Below are positions 2,627 to 17,560 of a stretch of DNA of 64,000 bases, one piece after another. The stretch lies in contig CBDBGZ010000009.1 of NCBI GenBank assembly GCA_965205425.1, positions 608,001 through 672,000 of the forward strand. Reading direction: 5' to 3'. The stretch is from Nitrosopumilus sp. Lineage in GTDB: Archaea; Thermoproteota; Nitrososphaeria; Nitrososphaerales; Nitrosopumilaceae. The notes under the pieces were generated by a model. The model did not search any database, was not told the origin of the DNA, and was given only the letters and a program-made list of their open reading frames with translations. Made by a program: the position numbers and the translations under genes. Numbering within the stretch: the stretch's first letter is position 1; each line of letters opens with the position of its first letter.

Positions 2627-3397
2627 TCAATAATCTGGTCTATAGCCATATCTTGTACCATATGTAAAGTCAGAACTGTGCATTTTTTTGTAGATATATC
2701 CAGTTCCCAAACCAACTGCAAAGCCACCAATGTGTGCAAGATATGCTACACCACCACCTGCAACACCAAATCCTCCAATGAAGAAAGGCAATAGATTTTG
2801 AAAAACTAGCCAAAAGGGCAAGAACCATCGAGCTTGTATGTGCATCATTCTCCAAATGAATCCAAGCATCATGAAAGTTTGAACTCTTGCTCTTGGAAAA
2901 ATTATCAAATATGCACCCAGTACTCCAGAAATTGCACCAGAAGCTCCAACTGCAGGAATTGCACTGCTAGGATCTCCAAGTATGTGAATTAATCCCGCAG
3001 CTATTCCCCACATTAAATAAATTCCAAAAAATTTTACTTTGCCAAACTTTTGTTCAATGTTATCACCAAATATCCATAAGAACCAGATGTTTCCACCAAG
3101 ATGAAGTAAACCACCATGCATGAAAGTGGATGTCAGTAATGTAACTTCTGAAAATGCAGGACATTGTATTATTCCATTTACAGTTTCTATTCCACTATAT
3201 GTTCCAGTAACACAAGCCGGAACCGCTCCCCAATTGTAAAACATTACAAATGCTTTTTCATTTGAAAAGTCAAAAAATTGTCCCGTATATGCTACTTCCA
3301 TAAAAAATACTATAACATTTGTAATGATTAATGCAATTGTTACTTTGGGTTTGAATCCTGGAGGATGGGGATTCTCATCTCTTAAAGGAAACAACAA
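2627..3397 (-). CDS. Rhomboid family intramembrane serine protease
   Basis: FMHGG..HL.GN, GASGAISG and AHIGG motifs; multiple TM segments. Confidence 0.95.
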   Translation of the reverse strand: MLFPLRDENPHPPGFKPKVTIALIITNVIVFFMEVAYTGQFFDFSNEKAFVMFYNWGAVPACVTGTYSGIETVNGIIQCPAFSEVTLLTSTFMHGGLLHLGGNIWFLWIFGDNIEQKFGKVKFFGIYLMWGIAAGLIHILGDPSSAIPAVGASGAISGVLGAYLIIFPRARVQTFMMLGFIWRMMHIQARWFLPFWLVFQNLLPFFIGGFGVAGGGVAYLAHIGGFAVGLGTGYIYKKMHSSDFTYGTRYGYRPDY

Positions 3398-4305: not shown

Positions 4306-5862
4306 TTAAATTTTCAATATTCCATTACTAATTAGATATCGAATTCCTTGTACAAATGCATCATCATCAATGGCACCATCTGCCCACCAACCTGCATTAT
4401 TTCTAATCCAAGATGGAATTTCTTTAGATGTTGAAGTTTCTTGTTGAGTTTGAGGAATGGAGATTATTTTGTTTTTAATCATATATTCAATTCCTTGAAT
4501 GAATGTATTATCATCAATTTGTTCAGCAGACCACCATAAAGCATTATTTCTAATCCAATCAGGTAATGAAATTTCTTCATTTGCAGTTATTCTATCAATT
4601 ACAATAGGAATTGTTGTCTTTGCAAGGTTGTTGTTATCCAAGTTTTTAAAATTCAAATTTACAATACCTGAAACATCTTCAAGAATAAAAAATTCTGCAA
4701 CATTGTGTTCATCTTTTGAATCGGTACTAACACCACTTTGTTCATAAAGTATTTTTTCACCTTGAGTCACTGAAAATTCATAATTTGTTGCTACGGGTTT
4801 ATTTTTTAAGAATATATCAGTTACATCAAAAAGAATTTTTCCATTTGAATTTGATTTTAAGTTTTCTGGTTCCCAAGAAACAAGAATTCTAAACTGCCCA
4901 TTTTCAGTTACAGAACTTAGATGAGGGTAATCTTGATTTGGTTTAATTACAAAATCCATTCCATTTTGATTTGAATTATTATCAAAAATATTTTGTAATT
5001 CTTTTTGATATATTATAAAATGAACAATTCTACCATCAGCAAAGAAATCATCAATGTTTACAATATCTTGAGATAATTCTACGCCGTTGACATACATTGT
5101 AAATCCAGATACTAGTAAATCACCAAATGTTTTTGGAATTACTAGTTCTTCATGAACAACTGATGTTTGATTGATGTTTGATTGAGTCCATTCAAAAGGC
5201 ATGAAATAGCTAATTTCTTTTGAATTTGAATCATAATTAAAATTTGAAATTTCATCATAGTATGTAATGACATGAATATTTTGTTCCCCAAAATTAAGAT
5301 CTGTAAAATCATGTCTAGATGTTTGAGCAATAGAAATACCAGCATTGAAAACTAGTGGAACATCTAATTTTTGTGAATATCCATCAGCAGTTAACACACT
5401 TACATCTAACTTGTATAGTCCACCTTCACTAAGTTTAGGTCCTTTAACATGCACCATTCTACTTTCTAATCCCAACAAAGAACCAAAGAGTCCTCCTCCA
5501 TTTTCTTCTTCTAAAATTATTGAATCATTTTCTTCAGATACAAAATTAAAAACTATGAATCCATTGTCTGCTTTAAATTCTTGCTCAAAAAGAAATTGTT
5601 CTCCACGCTCTGATTTAATTAAAAATGTGACATCTCGTAGTGTAATTTTTGAATTAAAATCAATTAATGATATAGAGATTTGTTGATCATCATTTGTTTC
5701 AGGATCACTTTTGGATGATGAAACTTCTAGCGTTACAAGTTTTCCATCAAGATCAACCGGAGGAAAAGTTTCACTACCTACACCATGACCATATACATTA
5801 TCAAATCCAATAGTAAATACAAATGAAAATATTAAAACCACAAGTAATGAGAAATTTTTCAA
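4306..5862 (-). CDS. Secreted thaumarchaeal surface protein (often labelled 'peptidase'), predicted mature His1, two C-terminal PxWIRNNAxWW repeats
   Basis: Likely TTG start at 5862 (LKNFSLLVV... signal peptide, NVYG|HGVG). The ORF-track extension to 5955 overlaps the upstream gene. Paralogue of 6104-7813 and 16196-17560. Confidence 0.8.
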   Translation of the reverse strand: MKNFSLLVVLIFSFVFTIGFDNVYGHGVGSETFPPVDLDGKLVTLEVSSSKSDPETNDDQQISISLIDFNSKITLRDVTFLIKSERGEQFLFEQEFKADNGFIVFNFVSEENDSIILEEENGGGLFGSLLGLESRMVHVKGPKLSEGGLYKLDVSVLTADGYSQKLDVPLVFNAGISIAQTSRHDFTDLNFGEQNIHVITYYDEISNFNYDSNSKEISYFMPFEWTQSNINQTSVVHEELVIPKTFGDLLVSGFTMYVNGVELSQDIVNIDDFFADGRIVHFIIYQKELQNIFDNNSNQNGMDFVIKPNQDYPHLSSVTENGQFRILVSWEPENLKSNSNGKILFDVTDIFLKNKPVATNYEFSVTQGEKILYEQSGVSTDSKDEHNVAEFFILEDVSGIVNLNFKNLDNNNLAKTTIPIVIDRITANEEISLPDWIRNNALWWSAEQIDDNTFIQGIEYMIKNKIISIPQTQQETSTSKEIPSWIRNNAGWWADGAIDDDAFVQGIRYLISNGILKI

Positions 5863-5863
5863 T

Positions 5864-6088
5864 CTAGGTCCACTTGTCTGGATTTTTCTTTCTAATTTCT
5901 TTTCCATCAACGGTAACTTGATCTTCTTCTTCAAAAACAGTATGCCACCTACCATTGTCTGGAAAAATTTTATTCATTTCTTCAAATTTATCATTTGTAG
6001 GTGCTTTGTTCATTAAAGCTCCCCATCTCATGTTACGGACTTTTGGCATTATATCGTTGATGTCTTTCATTATATTTTCACTAAACAA
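5864..6088 (-). CDS. Small hypothetical protein (probable start 6070, MKDINDIMPK)
   Basis: Fills the gap between two co-oriented genes; protein-like composition with conserved-looking Trp residues. Confidence 0.7.
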   Translation of the reverse strand: MFSENIMKDINDIMPKVRNMRWGALMNKAPTNDKFEEMNKIFPDNGRWHTVFEEEDQVTVDGKEIRKKNPDKWT

Positions 6089-6103
6089 ATTTAATTTAAA
6101 AAC

Positions 6104-7813
6104 TTATGATTGTACTCTCATTATTCCTTCTTTAATCAAGAATTGGATTCCTTGTATGAATGAATCATCATCAATTTGTCCTGCTGCCCACCACTCTGCA
6201 TTATTTTTAATCCAGGCTGGTATGTCGTTTGAGCCAGAACCAGTTCCTTGTGAAGTTGGAGGAATTTTTAGAACATCTTCTTTAATCAAATATTGAATAC
6301 CTTGCACAAATGAACCATCATCAATTTGTCCTGCTGCCCACCACTCTGCATTATTTTTAATCCAACTTGGGATTGGTGTTTTTTCTGGAACCGAAGGAGT
6401 TGAAGTTGAAAAACCTGGACCAATTTCAATAATTGCTGAACCAATTCCGGCATAGGTTGGATCATAATCAAATCCTGTTCCATAAACTAGAATATCAACA
6501 CGTATTTGTCCTGCAGATGGAACATGAATTTTTTGTACATCTAACCCTTCAATAGATACAATTCCAGGATTTAGAGAATCTATACCATCATTTCGAGCTA
6601 TTTCATTTTCATTCTCATCTAAAACAACATATGCATATCTTACATCTTTGATCAAGTCTCTATTATCATCAAAGAAAGTGAATTCAAAAGGAATTTCTTG
6701 ATTGGCACCATATTTTCCATCCCATGCTATATTGACTGTAGTTGGAACTTGTTCGTAATTTGCAGTATCTACAAGATAAAATTCAGTAGAACTTTTTGAT
6801 GCTTCATCTAATGGAACTAATTTCAAATCCATTTGCAAATTATCATGATTTGAAGGACCAAGAGTTTCATTAATTTTTTCTAATTCATTTTTAGTAATTA
6901 AGAAATGAATAATATTGTTATCTTCTGAGGAATATGGATCATTAAGTAATGCTCTTTGATCAATTTCAACACCGTTAACATATCCTTTGAACTGCTTTCC
7001 ATCAGCATAAGGTGCAAATGTTTTTGGGACTCTGACTTCTTCATGTACTACCTGTACTAATCTAACATAGTCAGGATCCCAATCAAATGGCATATCAAAT
7101 GAAATAGAATTATCTAATTTATCAAAAGCAAAGTTATCAACATCATCATAATATGTTTTAATTACAACTGGAATTTCTTCAGCATTTGCAGTTTGGAAAG
7201 AGAAATTTTGATCTTGTGCAACACTGACAAAAGTCTCATAACTTAGTAAATTAGCTAATACAGTTTTTGGACTAGTGGCAGCTTCAATGTCAACTATAAT
7301 TTTGTATAACCCACCTTTAACAAATATTGGACCAGTAATTGACGGTCTACCACAAATATCTAAATTTTCATCATTACAGGCTTCTCCATGTACAAATAAT
7401 GCACCTGGTGCACTAACATGTTCAGAACCACCATAAATTGAACACTCATGAAGATTAATCTCATCACATCCAAACTGTGGTTTGATTTTAACATCTAATC
7501 TTCCATCCATATCATAAAACAAATTTCTAGCTAAAAGTTCGCCACTTTGCCAAACTTCTACTCTGTATGTGACTTTGTCAAGATTCTCATCAGATTCGAT
7601 ATCAAAGAAACGTATTTGCATGTTAGCCGAATCAACATCTCCTACCGTAATATCAGATGGACTCAATTGAGTACTAACAGTGACTTCCATATCACCAAAT
7701 GATAATGGTTCAGCTTGATCTCCTCCAAATCCATGTCCAAATGCATCAGGTAAAATAGTGGCAATTGAGAAAATACCAATTATTGAAACGAATAATGTAA
7801 ACTTGTTATACAA
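6104..7813 (-). CDS. Secreted surface protein paralogue, predicted mature His1, two [12 protein letters not shown] repeats
   Basis: Signal peptide [10 protein letters not shown]; shared core TYYD...MPFDW...VVHEE...PKTF...VNGVE...IIH. Confidence 0.85.
6166..6364. repeat. 49-bp identical direct repeat (6166-6214 and 6316-6364) encoding [16 protein letters not shown]
   Basis: CATCATCAATTTGTCCTGCTGCCCACCACTCTGCATTATTTTTAATCCA occurs twice, 150 bp apart. Confidence 0.9.
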
Positions 7814-7928
7814 TACAAAAATTGTGTTAATTCCATATTTAAAGTTGGTACAGCATTCCTACCTATGAAAATTTTTTTCCTTTGGAAAATAGAGTACAAC
7901 TTTTATTTCCGATTTTCAAAGTCAAAAC

Positions 7929-8747
7929 ATGAAATTACTTCTTGCAGTATTATTAATTCCATTATTGATTATTCCTGCATTTGCTGAATCTCAAACTTTG
8001 CCTACAGAAAAAGGAACACTAGATGTAAAATTAACACATGATGAAATAGAACCAAATATTCAAACAAAAATCAACATTGATTTTCTAAATCCACAAACAC
8101 AAAAAGTTCAAGAGCATATTGACTATACAATTTCTGTTTCCAAAGATGGTGAAAAAGTCTTTGGACCAATTCCACTAACTCACACATCAGTTGGTTCTGT
8201 AAAAATTCCAATTGAATTCAATCTTGGTGACGGTATATACACAATGGACTTTGAAATTGAAGGAATTTTATTTCAACCAATTCCAACTGAAACAGTAACA
8301 TTTGATATTGCAGTAGGTGATGCTCATGCTCAACTAACTCCTAACAATGATGTTCCACCTGTTGAAGAGAATGGTGGATGTCTAATTGCAACTGCAGCAT
8401 ATGGTTCTGAAATGGCACCACAAGTTCAACAACTCAGAGAGCTTAGAGACAATACTGTATTATCAACAGAATCTGGAATTGCTTTCATGAGTGGATTTAA
8501 TCAACTCTATTATTCATTTTCTCCCGGTGTAGCTGATCTTGAAAGAAAAAGTCCGATTTTCAAAGAAATTGTTAAAGCTGGATTAACTCCAATGTTATCA
8601 TCATTATCTTTGCTTAATCATGTTGATATTGATTCAGAGCAAGAAATGTTAGGTTACGGAATATCCATAGTACTACTAAACATCGGAATGTATGCTGGAA
8701 TTCCTGTATTTGGAATTCTAAAATTGTACCAATTTAGAAAAAATTAG
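7929..8747 (+). CDS. Exported protein with CFI-box-CTERM domain (putative copper-binding)
   Basis: Signal peptide; QEHIDY...HT motif; GGCLIATAAYGSE..PQVQ.LRE.RD C-terminal domain followed by a TM helix. Confidence 0.85.
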   Translation: MKLLLAVLLIPLLIIPAFAESQTLPTEKGTLDVKLTHDEIEPNIQTKINIDFLNPQTQKVQEHIDYTISVSKDGEKVFGPIPLTHTSVGSVKIPIEFNLGDGIYTMDFEIEGILFQPIPTETVTFDIAVGDAHAQLTPNNDVPPVEENGGCLIATAAYGSEMAPQVQQLRELRDNTVLSTESGIAFMSGFNQLYYSFSPGVADLERKSPIFKEIVKAGLTPMLSSLSLLNHVDIDSEQEMLGYGISIVLLNIGMYAGIPVFGILKLYQFRKN

Positions 8748-8804
8748 TTCCGTTTCTGGAATTTCCAGTGAGGTTTTTATGTATCCAACCGAGTAATTTG
8801 TCTA

Positions 8805-9689
8805 ATGAAGACTAAAGCACTTAGATCTTTCTTCGTACTATTTGCTATCGCAGCTGGTATTGTCGCTATGACACCAGGTGCATATGCAGATCATTCAGAA
8901 GTCACAATTGAAGCTGCACAGGGTTCTGGCGCACCAGGTTGTGAAGAAACTCCAGAGGGATGTTACATCCCAGGTACTGCAACAGTAGATGTTGGTGGTG
9001 TTGTTATCTTTTCAAATCCAGATAGCGCAGCACACACTTTCACATCAGGAGATCCAACAATGCCTGAAACAGTTCAGGTTCTATTCGATTCCGGTCTAGC
9101 TATGGCTGGAAGCACATTCGAATGGTCTCCAACTGAAACAGGTGAGGTTCCGTATTTCTGTATGGTTCATCCTTGGATGCAAGGAATAATCATAGTACAA
9201 GAAGTAGGAGCTGTAGAAGATGATCACGGTGACGATCATGGTGACGACGAGGGCATGCATATGCCAGAAGGCGATGCAACTGCAACCGGTATGTTATCTG
9301 ATAGTACAATGGTTTCAATCTGGGCTTCAACACCAACTGCAGGTGAAATGATGGAAATTTCCATTGAGTTTGCTGATGCAGAACATGTTAATCATGACAT
9401 CATGGTAACACAAAACGGTGAAGAAGTTTTACACGATGAAGGTGCACACCATCACGATGGTACAGGTGTACATACAACAGCAGCACTTAGTTCTTCTGAT
9501 CCAGTAGACATCACTATTACCTTCCAAGGTTATGGTGTTGATGATCCTAAAACAGGACCAATTGGTGAAGAAGTTGTATTCACAAATGTTGTCCCAGAAT
9601 TTGGTACAATTGCAATGATGATACTAGCTGTTGCAATCATAAGCATCGTAGCAGTAACTGCAAAATCTAGAGTCGTTCCAAGATTTTAG
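8805..9689 (+). CDS. Plastocyanin-like blue (type 1) copper protein with PEFG-CTERM anchor
   Basis: N.D...HT and YFCMVHPWM type 1 Cu ligands; His/Asp-rich linker; VVPEFG followed by a TM helix. Confidence 0.92.
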   Translation: MKTKALRSFFVLFAIAAGIVAMTPGAYADHSEVTIEAAQGSGAPGCEETPEGCYIPGTATVDVGGVVIFSNPDSAAHTFTSGDPTMPETVQVLFDSGLAMAGSTFEWSPTETGEVPYFCMVHPWMQGIIIVQEVGAVEDDHGDDHGDDEGMHMPEGDATATGMLSDSTMVSIWASTPTAGEMMEISIEFADAEHVNHDIMVTQNGEEVLHDEGAHHHDGTGVHTTAALSSSDPVDITITFQGYGVDDPKTGPIGEEVVFTNVVPEFGTIAMMILAVAIISIVAVTAKSRVVPRF

Positions 9690-9703
9690 GAATTCCTCTT
9701 TTT

Positions 9704-10348
9704 CTATTTTCTTTTTATTAATGATACTATTGCCAATATGATAGCTGCAGCTGCAATTGACAATCCAAATATTGCATAGTCATAAGCAGCACCACCATTA
9801 GAAGTAACTTCTGTTTCTCCTGAATTTAGTTTAGAAACATCTTGTTGTAATGATGAAATTGCATTCTTTAATGCTGCAATATCAGTATCGCCACCACTAT
9901 TTGAAGGAGGAAAATCTAAGACTGCTGTAGGCTCAACATCTTCTACGGGAATTTTCACATATATAGGAACACCACGAATTTCGCCTTTGAATTCTACTAG
10001 ATAACTTCCAGTTTTAGTTGGAATGATTGGCGAGTAATAGTATCCAGGTCGTGGATCAGAATTAATATCAACTTTCTTGGTAGCACCACCATACATTACA
10101 GTAGCATCAGTACTTTTGAAAACACTAGTGACTCCATTACGAGTTCCTTCTGTTTCTCCTGCTTCAGTAATTTTGAATACAAGATCATTTCGTATTCCTA
10201 CTACAGGTGGTTCTATTCCCCATCCTGCTTCAATTTCATACGGTCCAACTTCAACAGTAGTATGTGCAAATGAGGGTACAATCATGCCTATTGAAAATAA
10301 TAATGCAATAAAGCCGAAAACTGCTATCTTCACGACCATCAATGACAA
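9704..10348 (-). CDS. Membrane-anchored exported protein, predicted mature His1
   Basis: Signal peptide PSFA|HTTVEVG; GW..EPP motif; short coiled coil and C-terminal TM helix. Confidence 0.8.
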   Translation of the reverse strand: MSLMVVKIAVFGFIALLFSIGMIVPSFAHTTVEVGPYEIEAGWGIEPPVVGIRNDLVFKITEAGETEGTRNGVTSVFKSTDATVMYGGATKKVDINSDPRPGYYYSPIIPTKTGSYLVEFKGEIRGVPIYVKIPVEDVEPTAVLDFPPSNSGGDTDIAALKNAISSLQQDVSKLNSGETEVTSNGGAAYDYAIFGLSIAAAAIILAIVSLIKRK

Positions 10349-10434
10349 TTCATCAGTTATTATCTTTATGTAAATTGGTACAAATTAAGAAAAAGGTAAA
10401 CTGTTTAAATTATCATAAGTGATCTTACCAACAA

Positions 10435-13209
10435 ATGAGAAAATTCCTAATAATTTTACTAGTCTTATCATTTATTTCAATTCCATTTGCAGCAGCTCAT
10501 CCATTTACTGAAGAAACTATTCCAAATTTAGGATCAAACGCACCAGTCGGAATTTCAGAAGTAATTGTATATTTTTCAGAACCAGTTGATATCAACTTTA
10601 GTGAAATCAAAGTTTTTGATAGTAGTGGAAATCAAATTGATAACAAAGATACCAATTACTATGAAGGGGAATTATCTCTAATTGTCACCACATCACCATT
10701 AGAAGATGGAGTTTATACCGCAGCAGTTAAAGTCCTATCAAAAGTTGATGGTCATTTAGTTCCAAGTGCATTCTTGTTTGGAGTTGGAGATGTTATAATA
10801 CAAGACACTAATCCCCCACTAGTAGAATCTGAAATTATTTTCTTACCAGAAGCTGGTGCAAGATTTCCTGGAATTTTAGGTCAAACCATTGTTTTAGGTG
10901 CAGTAATAGCATCACTGATCATTTGGGGCACACAAAACAAACAACTAATCAAAGAAGAATTAGACAAAGTTGAAATTTTTCATCATGGAAAATTCATGTC
11001 CATTACCGGAATAGGGTTGATGCTAGTATTCATTTCAGATATTTTGATGATTGTAGTTCAAACTGTAAGATTAGAAACTTTTCCAATTGAAGTGATTGGA
11101 ACGTATTTTGGAACCGTTTGGCTTGCTAGAATGATTATTACAATTGTTTTACTTGGTATTTGGTTTGGAATGGATAAGAAAAAGATTCTATCAAAGAAAA
11201 ATCAAATTCCCATGCTTGTTGCATCTCTAGTATTAATTTCAACTTCTAGCTTGATTGGTCATGGTGCAGCTAGTGAACAAATGGAAGCATTAGCATTAGA
11301 CTATATTCATAATTTAGTGGCAGCAGTTTGGATTGGTGGAATCATATACTTTGTTTTTACTTTACTTCCAACATTTTCTCAACTAAAGGACACAAACAGA
11401 GAAAAAATGAGCTTGGTAATGATTCCAAGATTTTCTATTGCATTTATCACCTCAATAGGTATTGTAATAATTACAGGACCTACTCTAATGTGGTTCTTAG
11501 AAACAGATGTAGGATTAATTACAGAATCAGTATTTGGCCAATTAATAATTCTCAAAATTGCAATTGCAGCAATTATGGTAGGGTTGGGAGGATATTTCCA
11601 ACTCAGAGTACAAAAAAATGCAGAAAAGAATTTTTCATTAGGTAAAATTGTGGTTTTCAAAAAACTGAAAAAATCACTTAAAGTTGATGCGGCATTAGGA
11701 ATTATTCTTCTAGGAGTTGTTGCATTACTAACTAACGGAACATTACCTGCAGGGGAAATCCAAAAAGTTGATGCTCAAGAAATTATCTATGGATTCAAAA
11801 CTATAGAATTTTCAGAAAATGCAAAATTTGATATCGATATTTCGCCATTTTCTAGTGGAACAAATACAATTCTAGTTAAAGTAAGTGATTTTGATGGAAA
11901 CCAACTTTATGATTCTGAACAGATTAGAGTAAAAATATCAAATCCATCAAAGAATATTTCTCCTATTGAAGTTCCAATATCAATAAAGAATCTCTCAGAC
12001 CCAATTCAATTCCAAGGGGAATTAACATTTGGATTTTCAGGAGAATGGTTAGTAGAGGTTGAAGCTCAAAGAACTGAGAATGCAAATGAATCAATTATGT
12101 TAAATTTACTTGTAAAACCTAGACTAGCAAATATTCAAACACAAATTATTGAATATGATTTACCTGAAGCTGCTAAACCATTATTTGCAGTATATGATGG
12201 AAAAGATTCTTTGTGGATTAGTGATGCATCTGCTCCTAGGATATGGGAATTTTCACTTGAAACAAATGAATTTACTCCATATTCATTTGATGGTTTAGTT
12301 ACAACTTTTCTAACACAAGACAACAAAGGAAATATTTGGTTTACAGATACTCCTAGAAACCAAATTGGATTTATTGACATTGAAACTAAAGAAATTACTA
12401 CTAAAACTATACCAAAACTAGATCCAGTAATTTCAGAAAATTCACCATTGTTCCTTAAAGCAGACTTTGATGATAACATTTGGATTACAATAATCAACAA
12501 AGATAAAATTCTAAAATATTTACCAGAGCAGGATATTTTTGAGGAAATTGGTCTACCTAACAAACAATCTCTTCCATTTGCATTAACATTAGATAATGAT
12601 GGAAAGATTTGGTATTCTGCTACAGGTTCTGGTAAAATTGGATTCATTGATCCTCAAAATAATCAATTAACACAAATCTCAACTGAAACAGTATTGCAAG
12701 CACCAGAAGCTTTGATTTTTGATGAAGATGGGAATCTATGGATTGCAGAGCACACAGGGTTGGCAATTACTAAATTTAATCCAATTTTAGAGACATTTAG
12801 TAAGATAGCTGTGCCTGATAAAGAGGCATTACCATTTGGTATGACATTTGACAAATATGGAAATATTTGGTTTGCACAACATACCGTAGACAGTCTAGGC
12901 GTTTATGATCCTGACAACAATGATTTGTTAGAAATTCCAGTTCCAACTGAAACTTCTTTCATTCAATTTATGGTATCAGATGGAAATGACAATGTTTGGT
13001 TTGTTGAACAGCAATCAAATAAAATTGGAACTATAAAGATGACGGAAATTCCAGTAAGTATTTCACAGATTCAAGAATCAAATGGAGTAGAAATAAAATA
13101 TACAGAACTTGCATCTCCATTAATTGCATTAGGAATTATTGCAACATCATTATTTTATGTAAAAAGCATTCAAGATAAAAGAAGATTAAATTCTTTGATT
13201 AATTCTTAG
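10435..13209 (+). CDS. CopC-CopD fusion with C-terminal Vgb/NHL-like beta-propeller (copper uptake/resistance)
   Basis: AAA|HPF...FSEPV...S.VDGH (CopC); GHGAA...H.L...VWIGG and PRFS (CopD); repeated D..GNIWF blades. Confidence 0.9.
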   Translation: MRKFLIILLVLSFISIPFAAAHPFTEETIPNLGSNAPVGISEVIVYFSEPVDINFSEIKVFDSSGNQIDNKDTNYYEGELSLIVTTSPLEDGVYTAAVKVLSKVDGHLVPSAFLFGVGDVIIQDTNPPLVESEIIFLPEAGARFPGILGQTIVLGAVIASLIIWGTQNKQLIKEELDKVEIFHHGKFMSITGIGLMLVFISDILMIVVQTVRLETFPIEVIGTYFGTVWLARMIITIVLLGIWFGMDKKKILSKKNQIPMLVASLVLISTSSLIGHGAASEQMEALALDYIHNLVAAVWIGGIIYFVFTLLPTFSQLKDTNREKMSLVMIPRFSIAFITSIGIVIITGPTLMWFLETDVGLITESVFGQLIILKIAIAAIMVGLGGYFQLRVQKNAEKNFSLGKIVVFKKLKKSLKVDAALGIILLGVVALLTNGTLPAGEIQKVDAQEIIYGFKTIEFSENAKFDIDISPFSSGTNTILVKVSDFDGNQLYDSEQIRVKISNPSKNISPIEVPISIKNLSDPIQFQGELTFGFSGEWLVEVEAQRTENANESIMLNLLVKPRLANIQTQIIEYDLPEAAKPLFAVYDGKDSLWISDASAPRIWEFSLETNEFTPYSFDGLVTTFLTQDNKGNIWFTDTPRNQIGFIDIETKEITTKTIPKLDPVISENSPLFLKADFDDNIWITIINKDKILKYLPEQDIFEEIGLPNKQSLPFALTLDNDGKIWYSATGSGKIGFIDPQNNQLTQISTETVLQAPEALIFDEDGNLWIAEHTGLAITKFNPILETFSKIAVPDKEALPFGMTFDKYGNIWFAQHTVDSLGVYDPDNNDLLEIPVPTETSFIQFMVSDGNDNVWFVEQQSNKIGTIKMTEIPVSISQIQESNGVEIKYTELASPLIALGIIATSLFYVKSIQDKRRLNSLINS

Positions 13210-14017
13210 ATAATAGCCCTGCAGATTTTATTCCCATTGTTCCTGCAAGTAATCCAATTGCAACCAAAACAATAGTTCCTGCAGGAGTAATATCAAAAAT
13301 ATAAGAAATTAAAATTCCTGAAACCACTGAAAATACAGAGAAGCTCATAGAAATTATTGCAGTTTGTTTGAACCCTTTACCATACATAATTGCAGCAACA
13401 TTTGGAATTACAAATAGAGCAGAAATTAACAATACACCTACAAGTTGTATTGATGTGACTACAGTAATTCCTGCCATAAACACAATCAAATAATTTATTT
13501 TTTCTACAGGAATTCCACTGACTTTAGCTTGTTCCTCATTAAATGTAGAATAGAGAAGTTGTCTATAGAGGCTCAAAATTACAATAAGAATAATGCCAGT
13601 TAAAGATAAGATTAGAACTGTATCATCTACACTAACAAGTAGAATACTACCAAATAGAAAACTAAAGATGTCAATTGTAAAACCTCCAGATAATCCAATA
13701 ATTACAAGCCCAACTGCTATGCCTGAAGATAACAGTACAGCAATAGATGCATCTCCAGATATGTTATATCGATCTTTAATTTTTGTAATTATTAATGCAC
13801 TAGCAATTGAAACTCCATAGGCTGTCCATAATGGATAAATGCCTGCAAGTAATCCTAATGCAATTCCACCAAATGATGAATGCGCAATTGCATCACCAAA
13901 TAGTGAATATCGTCTCAAAACTAGAAACAGTCCTACTACAGAACAAAGAATCGCAATAGCAATACCAGAAATTAAGGCTCTATGCATAAAACTAAAAGTT
14001 AGAATTTCAAAAGACAT
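13199..14017 (-). CDS. znuB: Zn/Mn ABC transporter permease
   Basis: RR.SLFGDAIAHSSFGG, LFGSIL and VGVLLISAL motifs. Confidence 0.9.
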   Translation of the reverse strand: MSFEILTFSFMHRALISGIAIAILCSVVGLFLVLRRYSLFGDAIAHSSFGGIALGLLAGIYPLWTAYGVSIASALIITKIKDRYNISGDASIAVLLSSGIAVGLVIIGLSGGFTIDIFSFLFGSILLVSVDDTVLILSLTGIILIVILSLYRQLLYSTFNEEQAKVSGIPVEKINYLIVFMAGITVVTSIQLVGVLLISALFVIPNVAAIMYGKGFKQTAIISMSFSVFSVVSGILISYIFDITPAGTIVLVAIGLLAGTMGIKSAGLLSKN

Positions 14018-14019
14018 GA

Positions 14020-14742
14020 TTAATGATGATGCATGTGTTCCTGCATTGAAGCTTCAGAGTATTGTTTCACTAATTCATCATCTGAAAAGAATTTTTCAGA
14101 TTCACCATGAAAGAATAAAGTTCTATTCAAACATGCAACATGATTTGCTAGTTGATTTACTGCATCCAAATCATGAGATGACCAAATGATTGTAATTTTT
14201 TGTTTAGAATTTAGTTCACGTAAAATACTGTAAAATAGATCAATGCTTTGTTGATCAATTCCTGTTACTGGTTCATCTAAAATTAAAATTTTCGGATTAT
14301 TTACCAAAGCTTTTGCAATAAAGACACGTTGCTGTTGACCTCCAGATAGTTCTCCAATTCGTCTATCACGTAGTTCATGTATCCACAACTGTTGCAAAAT
14401 CTCATCAATTTTATTTTCATCAGATTCATTTGTTATACCCATTCGGACGACATCATTTACAGTTACAGGAAAATTTTTTTCAAATATTGGTTTTTGTGGT
14501 ACATATCCAATTTGTTTAAGATATTTTTTTGATTTTTTGATTTCCTCACCAAAAAATTTGATTGTACCTTCATATCTTGTGTAAAGTCCCAACATTGATG
14601 AAAATAGTGTAGATTTTCCTGCTCCGTTAGGACCTATTATGCCTAGAAAATCACCTTCATTGACCTCAAAACTGACATTATCAAGTGCCTTGACATCAGG
14701 GTATTTTACTGTAAGATTTTTGATTTCTACGACTTTCAACAC
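14020..14742 (-). CDS. znuC: Zn/Mn ABC transporter ATP-binding protein
   Basis: GPNGAGKST, LSGGQQQR, LDEP and SHD motifs; His-rich tail. Confidence 0.9.
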   Translation of the reverse strand: MLKVVEIKNLTVKYPDVKALDNVSFEVNEGDFLGIIGPNGAGKSTLFSSMLGLYTRYEGTIKFFGEEIKKSKKYLKQIGYVPQKPIFEKNFPVTVNDVVRMGITNESDENKIDEILQQLWIHELRDRRIGELSGGQQQRVFIAKALVNNPKILILDEPVTGIDQQSIDLFYSILRELNSKQKITIIWSSHDLDAVNQLANHVACLNRTLFFHGESEKFFSDDELVKQYSEASMQEHMHHH

Positions 14743-15737
14743 AATGCTTCCTTAAGATTTTCAAGATTCTCATTCATCTTAGAAATATAGGTTCCATCTG
14801 TAACAACTTCTAATGGTGACAGTATCAATACTTTACCACCTATTTCATCAGCAATAATTTCAGAAGTTTTTTGATTTACAGCTTCTTCACTGAAAATAAC
14901 TTTAATGTTAAGCTCTTTTGCTTCTGAAATTACTTTTTCTAATGTTCTTGCCGAAGCTTCACCATGTGGATTATTTGAAGAGAGTATAGTATGTTGTGTT
15001 AATTCATACTCATCTGCAAAATATGAAAATGCATCATGGAAAGCTATGAAATCACTTTTACAAGATGATAACTCTGTACGAATTTTTGAGTCAAGGTCAT
15101 CTAATTGTTTTACGTATGCAGCTGCATTTTTTTGGTAAAATTCTCTATTTTCAGGATCTGAATTTGAAAATCCGTTTGCAATATTTTGAACTTGAGTTTT
15201 AGCAAGTACTGGATTTAACCAAATATGAGGATCTCCTAAGCTGTGATTATGTTTGTCATTTGACTCTTCTTCATGTTCTTCTTCATGTTCTTCTTCATGT
15301 TCTTCTTCATGTTCTTCTTCATGTTCTTCTTCATGTTCTTCTTCATGACTTTCAACTAAAATTCCATTACTAGTATCAATAATTATTCCAGAAAAATCAT
15401 TGTTTTCTAAACTTTCAACCCATGTTTCAAAACCAATTCCATTAATAATTATAAGATCTGCTGATTGCATTTTTTGGACATCTTTAATTGTTGGTTCCCA
15501 ATCATGTGGTTCTACACCAATTGGAGTAAGCAGGATTGCGTCAATTTTCTCTTGTCCAATTTTTTGAGAGAATTCATGAAGAGGATAAAACGATGAAATT
15601 ACTTTGAGTTTTGAATTTTCAATAACGTCTGAATTTTTTACAGAATCAGTCCCATAAACTGCAAACACAGCAAGAGGAATTACCACGATAATAGCAATAA
15701 TTGCCATCTTGCTTTGACTATTCATGACCAAAAACAA
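14736..15737 (-). CDS. znuA: Zn/Mn ABC transporter substrate-binding protein with (HEEE)7 loop (ATG start probably 15725)
   Basis: EPHDWEP, DPHIWL and FHDAFSY motifs. Confidence 0.9.
   Translation of the reverse strand: MFLVMNSQSKMAIIAIIVVIPLAVFAVYGTDSVKNSDVIENSKLKVISSFYPLHEFSQKIGQEKIDAILLTPIGVEPHDWEPTIKDVQKMQSADLIIINGIGFETWVESLENNDFSGIIIDTSNGILVESHEEEHEEEHEEEHEEEHEEEHEEEHEEESNDKHNHSLGDPHIWLNPVLAKTQVQNIANGFSNSDPENREFYQKNAAAYVKQLDDLDSKIRTELSSCKSDFIAFHDAFSYFADEYELTQHTILSSNNPHGEASARTLEKVISEAKELNIKVIFSEEAVNQKTSEIIADEIGGKVLILSPLEVVTDGTYISKMNENLENLKEALC
15265..15347. repeat. Perfect 12-bp tandem repeat, about 7 copies (TCTTCTTCATGT), encoding HEEE
   Basis: Read directly from the sequence. Confidence 0.95.
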
Positions 15738-15743
15738 TCTAAA

Positions 15744-15805
15744 TTATTAATAAACCTATAAAATCTTAATAAGATTTATTGCTAAACTTATAAGCTAATT
15801 AATAA
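15744..15805. promoter_or_regulatory. Divergent znuA/NikR-like promoter with palindrome AAATCTTA-A-TAAGATTT (15761-15777) and three TTAATAA boxes
   Basis: Perfect 8-bp inverted repeat between divergently transcribed genes. Operator function is inferred. Confidence 0.45.
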
Positions 15806-15815
15806 CATTAGGCAT

Positions 15816-16199
15816 ATGCCAATAGTCTCAATCTCATTAAATGATGAAATTCTATCAGAATTAGACAAGCTTCAATCATCTATGGGGTTTTCTGGTAGGT
15901 CAGAAGCTATCAGAGCAGGAATCCGATCGTTTGTTTCTGAAGAAAAACAAAAAGCAGATTTGGAAGGAAATATTCACGCGATTCTTTTGGTAGTACACAA
16001 TGATGAATTTGATCATATAGTTTCAGGCATCACACATAATTTTGAAGATCTAATTACAACTCACCTTCATAGTAAAATTGAGAAAGAGAAATGTATGGAG
16101 CTTTTTCTAATTGATGGTGATGCAGAAAAAGTATCTACCATGACAAAAGATTTTCAGACAAATAAAAACATGGATACAGTAAAGTTAGTTGCACTTTAG
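15816..16199 (+). CDS. NikR-family ribbon-helix-helix metal-responsive regulator
   Basis: VSISL...RSEAIR RHH domain; H...HLH..C.E metal-binding domain. Confidence 0.88.
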   Translation: MPIVSISLNDEILSELDKLQSSMGFSGRSEAIRAGIRSFVSEEKQKADLEGNIHAILLVVHNDEFDHIVSGITHNFEDLITTHLHSKIEKEKCMELFLIDGDAEKVSTMTKDFQTNKNMDTVKLVAL

Positions 16200-17560
16200 A
16201 TATTAAGCGAAGTTTTTCTTGTTACAAAAATAATACTCATTATAGAAATTATCAAAACAAGTATTGCAATACTTCCAAATTCAGGTACTACAACTAGAGC
16301 AAATTCAGTTTCTTGACCTGTATTTCTAATATTTTCAAATTTAATAATTGTTGGACCAGTTTGATCTTCAGAGAATGTAAATTTCTCAAATTCTCCTCCA
16401 ATTTGAGCAGTTCCAGATGTACGGTGAATTTCTTGTCCATTTTGAATTATTACAAATGTATAATCAGAGCTTCTCATAGGTTCATTTGTTTTTCCATCCC
16501 TGATTGTAAAAATAAAATTAGTATCAATGCCAGGTTCTACAGATATAGGATCCCATGCAAGATTAATTTTGAAGTCTTCACTTTTTGTATATGCTTCTAA
16601 TGGAAATGAAGCATCTTCACTTGCAGATAATGTAAATAACATATTATCAGGTAAAGGCTTATCAGATTTTTTCATTTCATTTTTCATATATCGTAAATGA
16701 TCTTGCAATAAAACAAGATGAACTATTCTTTCATCATCTTCAGTATAATCATCAACTGCAACTGAGGATTTGAATAATTCAATTCCATTTACATTTGCAG
16801 AATAGCTAGGAGATAAAAATTCTACAAAATCTTTTGGGAAATGAGTTTCAACATGTACTACTGGTACATGAGACATTTGTTTTTCACTCCAATCAAAAGG
16901 CATTTCAAAAGTGATTTCTTTAGCCTCAGAATTATACTCAAAATTCGATATTGTGTCAAAATATGACTTTGAACCAAATTCAACAGAATTAGTCTCAGAA
17001 TCTTGCTCCATGAAAAACTTAGTCTCAATCAGGCTCAAATCTGCATTATAGATACCAGAATTCTCTATGATGTTTGTAGGTTCATCAATAGTTCTTACTT
17101 CAATTTCAAAATTATACAATCCACCTGATGTAAAAAGCGGGCCAATTATTTCAACAGGGTTGGATTCTGTTCCATGCCAAGCACCAAGTAGAGAATCTTG
17201 TTCTCCATTAATTATAAAATTATTATATCCTTGTTGAGGAGAAATCTTAATTGGTAACACACCATTTTCTGTAAAGAAATAATTTCTAAAAATCATTTCA
17301 TCTTTATGAAATAACCCAATAAGAAAAGTTACATTTTTTGCATTTTCTTTTGTTTCGTCTTCTGTTGCAGTAATTGTGATTTGGCCCTCCTGATCACTTT
17401 CAAAATACATTGGCATCTCTACTGATATTGTGAGTTGTTTACCTTGTACATCTACTGAGGATATGGTATCAATTCCAAATCCATGTCCATAGACACTACT
17501 TGCAGGAAACAATAAGCATGCAACTAGTACAAATATTACAAAATTTTTGAATGGCATCAT
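16196..17560 (-). CDS. Secreted surface protein paralogue, predicted mature His1, PEFG-CTERM anchor
   Basis: SVYG|HGFGID; core SYFD...MPFDW...VVHVE...VNGIE...IVH; VVPEFG followed by a TM helix. Confidence 0.87.
   Translation of the reverse strand: MMPFKNFVIFVLVACLLFPASSVYGHGFGIDTISSVDVQGKQLTISVEMPMYFESDQEGQITITATEDETKENAKNVTFLIGLFHKDEMIFRNYFFTENGVLPIKISPQQGYNNFIINGEQDSLLGAWHGTESNPVEIIGPLFTSGGLYNFEIEVRTIDEPTNIIENSGIYNADLSLIETKFFMEQDSETNSVEFGSKSYFDTISNFEYNSEAKEITFEMPFDWSEKQMSHVPVVHVETHFPKDFVEFLSPSYSANVNGIELFKSSVAVDDYTEDDERIVHLVLLQDHLRYMKNEMKKSDKPLPDNMLFTLSASEDASFPLEAYTKSEDFKINLAWDPISVEPGIDTNFIFTIRDGKTNEPMRSSDYTFVIIQNGQEIHRTSGTAQIGGEFEKFTFSEDQTGPTIIKFENIRNTGQETEFALVVVPEFGSIAILVLIISIMSIIFVTRKTSLNI

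Follow-up and report, generated by a model that had tools for sequence, protein, structure and literature searches.

The window analysed here is a stretch of 64,000 nucleotides from a Nitrosopumilus-type genome (contig CBDBGZ010000009.1, positions 608,001 to 672,000 of the forward strand), and it carries three genes for large exported paralogues, here called A, B and C, which are the sole members of their family in this genome. All three are encoded on the minus strand. Protein A (518 aa, 4306-5862) starts with a TTG codon at 5862; its signal peptide is followed by a predicted mature His1-Gly2 terminus (His1 codon at 5785-5787), three domains designated D1, D2 and D3, and a twin Trp-repeat tail at the C-terminus. 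Protein B (569 aa, 6104-7813; His1 codon at 7733-7735) likewise has His1-Gly2 and a Trp-repeat tail. Protein C (454 aa, 16196-17560; His1 codon at 17483-17485) has His1-Gly2, the D1-D2-D3 arrangement and a PEFG-CTERM anchor, and shares 87% identity with a database protein assigned to N. cobalaminigenes. The open reading frame (ORF) coordinates and signal junctions given in an earlier note on this DNA were confirmed. Its description of the three paralogues as an uncharacterised exported family also holds, the family core having no match in Pfam, NCBIfam or PDB sequences.

The interval between B and C is rich in metal-related genes. On the plus strand, an exported CFI-box-CTERM protein (7929-8747; NF041770, E 5.7e-21) with a D3-like domain of the MG2/YtkA type (D3 profile, E 8.6e-8) and a predicted mature N-terminal Glu precedes a type-1 cupredoxin (8805-9689; YFCMVHPWM). 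The cupredoxin has a D3-like domain, a PEFG-CTERM anchor and a junction, AYA/DH, that was confirmed on the translation and predicts Asp1-His2. A protein termed HTTV (9704-10348, minus strand) has His1 and a C-terminal membrane anchor, and its His1, Trp15 and Glu18 are invariant in nine of nine aligned relatives. Next to it, a 924-residue fusion of CopC, CopD, a YtkA-like segment and a beta-propeller (CopCD; 10435-13209, plus strand) has the junction AAA/HPF. Both CopC (PF04234, 36.1 bits against a cut-off of 23.3) and CopD (PF05425) exceed the Pfam cut-offs in this one chain; the CopC domain has the mature His1 and a DxH Cu(II) motif (DGH at 105-107), and the YtkA domain after CopD is a weak match (PF13115, 18.7 bits against 25.9). 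A CopC/D fusion in these archaea has been described before (PMC7785015, available text). Beyond it lie genes for a metal ABC importer of the ZnuB, ZnuC and ZnuA type (13199-15737, minus strand; matches to ZnuA, ABC-3 and ABC ATPase domains), in which the ZnuA-type binding protein (14736-15737) has a His/Glu-rich loop composed of the repeat (HEEE)x6. A ribbon-helix-helix regulator with NikR_C and RHH_1 domains follows (15816-16199, plus strand); it is NikR-like but scores under all NCBIfam NikR cut-offs (80.5 against 111, 68.7 against 83 and 61 against 105 bits). The neighbours named in the earlier note are thus present.

These genes form several divergent and convergent transcription units and not a single operon. 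B, a 68-aa ORF and A run on the minus strand, and the CFI-box protein and the cupredoxin on the plus strand; HTTV is divergent from CopCD, znuACB converges on CopCD, the nikR-like gene is divergent from znuA, and C converges on the nikR-like gene. The 68-aa ORF (5864-6070, minus strand; no signal peptide), overlooked in the earlier note, directly follows B in the stored loci as well. It is 63-96% identical in relatives, more conserved than its neighbours, and was found in all five genomes of the archaeal family to which the window belongs and in none of 56 others; it gave no convincing match in Pfam, NCBIfam or PDB. Close to where the A/B unit ends on its 3' side there is a rhomboid protease gene (2627-3397, minus strand), as in loci L069, L070 and L076, and one may speculate that it processes CTERM-anchored proteins.

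Five exported proteins of the locus, A, B, C, HTTV and the CopC-CopD fusion, have His directly after the predicted signal cut, as the earlier note had observed. Using a home-made signal-peptide rule, a heuristic distinct from SignalP, we called 109 exported proteins among 2560 ORFs genome-wide. The predicted +1 residue is His in 11 of the 109 (His background, 2.1%) and in five of the eight exported proteins at the locus. The hypergeometric P of 1.9e-4 is too small a value, because the region was picked post hoc, the five proteins include three paralogues and the calls come from a rule other than SignalP.

Conservation in the family was examined in two alignments, with residues numbered as in mature C (His = 1). 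The first has 113 rows, comprising 105 of 150 listed representatives (the longer ones with the N-terminus included), to which five close relatives and proteins A, B and C were added. The second pools stored proteins and loci and holds 373 distinct sequences, derived from 427 of 505 matches that cover at least 80% of the core. Among the 373, His211 is kept in 371, Glu213 in 370, Asp245 and His256 in 369 each, Asp177 in 362 and Gly2 in 357, so that His211, Glu213, Asp245 and His256 are about 99% conserved. The near-invariant histidines and carboxylates, evident in both alignments, include the VVHxE and IVH motifs to which the earlier note had drawn attention. Ser151 is kept in 346 of the 373, and Tyr175, Asp177, Trp199 and Asp245 belong to the same conserved second shell. 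There is no conserved Cys column in the 113 rows; A has no Cys and C has one.

Position 1 behaves differently from these residues. It is His in 245 of the 373 sequences, Asp in 107 and an unaligned gap in 21; Gln, Asn and Tyr occur once each among the 113 rows. A 119-sequence tree requires at least four switches of residue 1 between His and Asp, so that it changes almost only between two metal ligands. Since Asp can replace His1, the family does not have a strict His-brace, and from its sequences it is not a classical one. Two copies with Gln1 (QTLG and QALG; L068:7825-9186 and L072:2533-3909) stand back to back with His1 copies and may have lost their N-terminal ligand. In 20 of 80 loci (for example L136:1147-1716) the immediate neighbour of an Asp1 family gene encodes a 190-aa exported protein whose start resembles D1 by eye.

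A further set of residues gave the top coevolving cluster, His51, His71, His73 and Asp136, which are mostly present all together or not at all: among the 352 sequences with His or Asp at position 1, all four occur in 61, three in 7, one in 28 and none in 256. The full set is over-represented among Asp1 sequences (51 of 107), whereas A, B and C lack it. Because it was gained or lost about 16 times on the tree and is predicted to cluster at one end of D1, the pattern suggests that a second 3His-1Asp site is real in some relatives, though shared ancestry adds to the coevolution signals. D3 is absent from family forms of about 350 aa (L061-L063 and L065).

The predicted structure is a confident one (predicted local distance difference test score 95, predicted TM-score 0.87) and consists of three beta domains. 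In this model His211 and Glu213 are two residues apart on the same face of one strand and Asp245 and His256 lie on a neighbouring hairpin, and the coevolving pairs 245-256, 214-255 and 197-213 agree with it. Weaker pairs, 6-203 and 6-173, would put the N-terminus at the D1-D2 junction, with residues 6-8 near 151, 173, 176 and 203. It is plausible, then, that the N-terminus and D2 together form a site. D1 is homologous to D3 (HHalign 95%, E 2e-8). D3 matched MG2 (Z 11.8, root-mean-square deviation (rmsd) 1.9, 93 aligned residues) and the H. pylori copper protein CrdA (Z 11.2, rmsd 2.6, 101 aligned), and below both of these PmoD (Z 9.7, rmsd 2.9, 100 aligned). For D2, Foldseek listed nothing with an E of 0.001 or better, and the weak matches were to glycosidase accessory domains and pilins, with Z up to 7.3, the level common to beta-sandwiches; this establishes neither that the fold is new nor that it has a relative. 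Foldseek matches of the whole model had TM of about 0.2, and the nearest ESM Atlas clusters were the family itself or, under 0.9, archaeal MG2 proteins.

Such a site could also belong to a surface metalloenzyme using Zn, Mn or Fe, whether a hydrolase, a peptidase or an oxidoreductase, in which the N-terminus caps an HxE...H facial triad; closeness to CopCD would then be a by-product of surface-gene clustering. The H-x-E...H arrangement resembles the 2-His-1-carboxylate triad, the conserved second shell exceeds the needs of a simple carrier, Asp1 copies lie away from copper genes and paralogues expand to five or six copies in some genomes. The database names, 'peptidase' and the automatic 'Secreted periplasmic Zn-dependent protease family protein', point the same way, but the peptidase label has no motif support in the sequences. 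As stated in the earlier note, A, B and C have no HExxH; the motif occurs in 14 of the 113 rows, in 13 of them at His211, on the predicted strand 209-217 and not on a zincin helix. No peptidase was matched in Pfam, NCBIfam or PDB or stood among the top structural rows for the all-beta domains, and linkage to CopCD recurs in three taxonomic families. We consider an enzyme of this kind unlikely.

The distribution of the family was determined in 61 genomes across the order, in which amoA, the family and full-length CopC-CopD were each searched, CopCD and HTTV with one protein query each. The family was present in all 23 amoA-positive genomes and in none of the 38 amoA-negative ones, and a search of 213 genomes from the phylum's other families did not find it; the class sample added one genome with a weak match (E 1.7e-7) whose alignment includes the shared tail. 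Because ammonia oxidisers are one clade, this distribution amounts to a single gain and is shared with many core genes. It tracks amoA more closely than does full-length CopC-CopD, which occurs in 14 of the 23 and in one amoA-negative genome; HTTV also occurs in 14 of the 23. Linkage to CopCD is deep: of the 14 amoA-positive genomes with full-length CopC-CopD, 8 have a family copy no more than 10 kb away from it, and these belong to three families (4 of 5 in f1, 3 of 5 in f2 and 1 of 1 in f15, against 0 of 3 in f3), four of the misses having the genes on different contigs. CopCD and HTTV are adjacent in an amoA-negative genome (G160) as well, so this pair is not tied to nitrification. Some related clusters adjoin other copper genes, namely the COX1 operon in L064 and L071 and a two-domain copper oxidase in L068. 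None of the 23 genomes has a listed family copy within 10 kb of amoA, and a lone amoC stands two genes from a family copy in L063.

The ZnuABC and NikR-like genes are a less regular part of this neighbourhood. Here and in L069, L075 and L076, C or its counterpart abuts nikR and znuABC, an arrangement that would suit a protein collecting zinc or nickel for the importer, with control by the NikR-like protein. The same genes are missing from the L064, L070 and L072 clusters, that is, from three of the six inspected clusters with His1, CopCD and HTTV, and they occur in 2 of 80 Asp1 loci; they are not a constant component of the system. In the window, moreover, C converges on nikR and starts right after a LON-domain gene that itself follows pyrB. 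A scavenger role is accordingly very unlikely.

The CopC-CopD fusion and HTTV may, by analogy, form a copper-import pair like YcnJ and YcnI of Bacillus. HTTV would be a YcnI-like partner of CopCD and not a DUF1775 member: none of its nine members matched DUF1775 at E up to 1, and no YcnI was among the PDB matches. The possibility that HTTV is a homologue of D1 or D3 was rejected, since comparison of the profiles gave no similarity (0.2% and 13.5%). Another His1 protein of the HTTV type adjoins a glutamine synthetase gene (G000:C9:721327-721986, minus strand; L079:10909-11577); in L079 an extra family copy is adjacent to this second gene, and in L080 a further gene of the HTTV type and a family copy are separated by about 5 kb. 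In three genomes, a small His1 protein with a D3-like domain (starting HSMF, HQLF or HSLF) adjoins CtaA-cupredoxin-COX1 genes (G000:C7:8041-8568, plus strand; L064:14125-14655; L071:8121-8669), possibly as a CtaK/YtkA-like oxidase assembly factor.

Upstream of CopCD, an intergenic element with the core TTTGTACCA (10374-10391, minus strand) resembles the copper-limitation motif of N. viennensis with three mismatches. The TGGTAC-type element as a whole (10374-10411) is kept across genera of the window's archaeal family; it precedes the TATA box of CopCD by about 20 bases and is similar to the 3' half of that motif. The N. viennensis motif alone is at chance level in the window (6 matches, 3.3 expected). 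A scan for motif plus TATA box placed 3 of 10 matches in intergenic positions, one at CopCD and none at A, B or C. A shared regulon is therefore not shown.

Expression could be followed through a probable orthologue, NVIE_000010 (479 aa) of N. viennensis, identified by gene order and length and not by sequence, the 80 loci including none from the N. viennensis genome. In the named Nitrososphaera loci L084, L085 and L094, pckA and sodA are followed by a 392-400-aa ORF, then by the family gene, 132-aa and 129-aa ORFs and HMG-CoA synthase, and N. viennensis has the same order. NVIE_014340 and NVIE_014350 of the copper-induced CopCD cluster were rejected as family members (230 and 186 aa). According to the available text and data of PMC10030591, NVIE_000010 has a log2 transcripts-per-million value of 6.7 against 12.1 for amoX (about 40-fold less) and a membrane intensity-based absolute quantification value of 2.2e8 against 7.1e9 (about 30-fold less); it is threefold above CopC/D_b and peaks in native gel band B18 and not with AmoX (B7 and B12). 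The same source, as far as available, reports that the archaeal enzyme of hydroxylamine oxidation is still unknown. A family with the distribution of amoA, a location outside the membrane and a multi-His site could be thought of as that missing copper enzyme or as a subunit of ammonia monooxygenase (AMO), but its level, its separate migration and its distance from amoA in the 23 genomes make this extremely unlikely.

Low abundance relative to AmoX also argues against a structural role in the envelope or in adhesion, with the protein placed within or beneath the surface layer (S-layer) and its metal site serving only to stabilise the fold. Three beta-sandwich domains, the weak matches of D2 and the PEFG-CTERM and Trp-repeat anchors common to many surface proteins fit such a role, and PEFG-CTERM proteins rise under H2O2 in Nitrosopumilus (PMC6593220). 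The processed N-terminal His or Asp, the four near-invariant ligands and the repeatedly gained or lost His-rich site suggest active metal handling instead, and we regard a purely structural role as distinctly unlikely.

Taken together, A, B and C belong to a surface-anchored family confined to ammonia-oxidising archaea (AOA). Signal cleavage would free the N-terminal amine of residue 1, which is His or, in a large clade, Asp; this amine and the residue's side chain probably complete a metal site to which the middle domain contributes His211, Glu213 and His256, with Asp245 and Asp177 behind them. Copper would most likely be bound in the space between membrane and S-layer, and the metal passed to, or taken from, the CopC-CopD/HTTV import pair and loaded into outer enzymes such as the heme-copper oxidase, cupredoxins and possibly AMO. 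That the family binds metal is highly probable, although we infer the metal, the cut site, the contact of residue 1 with D2 and the partner; for copper as that metal the balance tips slightly in favour. The trafficking role overall, that of a constitutive surface chaperone for a metal, probably copper, in cuproprotein assembly, is put forward tentatively, at a little under even chances.

A number of observations weigh against this interpretation or against that of the earlier note. The note had named a non-conserved His1 as grounds for refuting its proposal, and the 107 Asp1 sequences among 352 (about 30%) go part of the way towards refuting a His-brace. The N-terminal coevolution pairs have z of 4-5, near noise. 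A ligand set of Asp1 with two His and one Glu suits Zn, Mn or Fe as well as Cu, and the fold of D3 says little about copper because the MG2 match is as good as that to CrdA. In f3, none of the three CopCD genomes has a copy within 10 kb (two on other contigs). Nine amoA-positive genomes carry the family with no full-length CopC-CopD found by this query, so the family does not depend on CopC-CopD. The 80 Asp1 loci, many on short contigs, are mostly housekeeping in content, with CopC/CopD in 5, HTTV in 7 and a cupredoxin in 12. Finally, under copper limitation NVIE_000010 rose by log2 0.58 (1.5-fold; adjusted P 7.9e-7), about the same as its neighbours (0.62 for the nearby hcs), against log2 2.2 and 2.7 for N. 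viennensis CopC/D, and N. maritimus CopC/D (Nmar_1652) fell by log2 1.70. These values do not fit capture induced by starvation; the family looks constitutive and sub-stoichiometric and unlike a sponge made when copper is short. On the supporting side, Nmar_1648 (B by gene order only), Nmar_1651 and Nmar_1652 all drop under iron limitation, from similar counts of about 65-100 spectra, and they fall together only at 27 C (available text of PMC12974425).

Archaeal ammonia oxidisers drive much of global nitrification via copper enzymes. If the proposal is true, a site that accepts His or Asp at a processed N-terminus would widen the His-brace concept; named candidate ligands and an amoA-like distribution open the family to direct biochemical test. 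Our literature searches found no paper on the family, although some key papers and supplements outside reach may list it as an AOA core gene; the main texts found had no mention of Nmar_1647, 1648, 1649, 1651, 1656, 1657 or NVIE_000010, and the 7 of 10 readable supplementary files of Abby 2020 had no locus-tag match.

Comparison with known systems places the family beside, and not within, several groups of copper proteins. Like the His-brace proteins CopC, lytic polysaccharide monooxygenases and PmoB/AmoB, it has a processed N-terminal His on a beta-sandwich, here followed by an invariant Gly; unlike them, it has Asp at residue 1 in nearly a third of its members and its other likely ligands in a second domain with no specific structural match. 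H. pylori CrdA, YtkA-CtaK and MG2-type Ig domains share the fold of D3 and, by homology, of D1, whereas D3 has none of the family's conserved residues, which the N-terminus and D2 carry. In B. subtilis, the CopC-CopD-YtkA protein YcnJ (bioRxiv 10.1101/2025.05.23.655588 and PMC13344008, accessible parts) corresponds to the window's fusion, with its CopC bearing His1 and DxH, its CopD and its weak YtkA match, except that the latter bears an extra beta-propeller. YcnJ supports heme-copper oxidases in B. subtilis (PMC13344008, accessible part), and clusters related to that of the window adjoin a heme-copper oxidase operon in two genomes. The counterpart of YcnI (DUF1775, a monohistidine brace) would be HTTV, which adjoins the fusion and is likewise small, anchored in the membrane and equipped with His1 and an invariant Trp and Glu. 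The order and spacing of these residues differ, Trp15/Glu18 replacing Glu50/Trp137, and in the ycnKJI operon as described in the accessible sources A, B and C have no counterpart.

A further parallel is with PmoD, AmoD and AmoE of methane- and ammonia-oxidising bacteria, as presented in the available text of PMC6189053, which reports PmoD/AmoD as missing from archaeal ammonia oxidisers. Both groups have a signal peptide, a beta-sandwich outside the membrane and a C-terminal anchor; both occur as several paralogues, some beside copCD, and are restricted to hosts of copper membrane monooxygenases. The family could then be an archaeal stand-in for PmoD/AmoD, an AMO copper-loading or maturation factor gained with AMO and kept by all AOA, an idea we hold to be a long shot. 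Such a stand-in would use an N-terminal site of a new type, in which residue 1 closes the His-Glu-His triad on the neighbouring domain, with the second 3His-1Asp site as an optional hand-off point. It would do so in its own way: the conserved Cys and the Cx7MxHxnC motif of the bacterial proteins are absent from the family, its genes do not lie beside amo genes, and the likeness is one of analogy.

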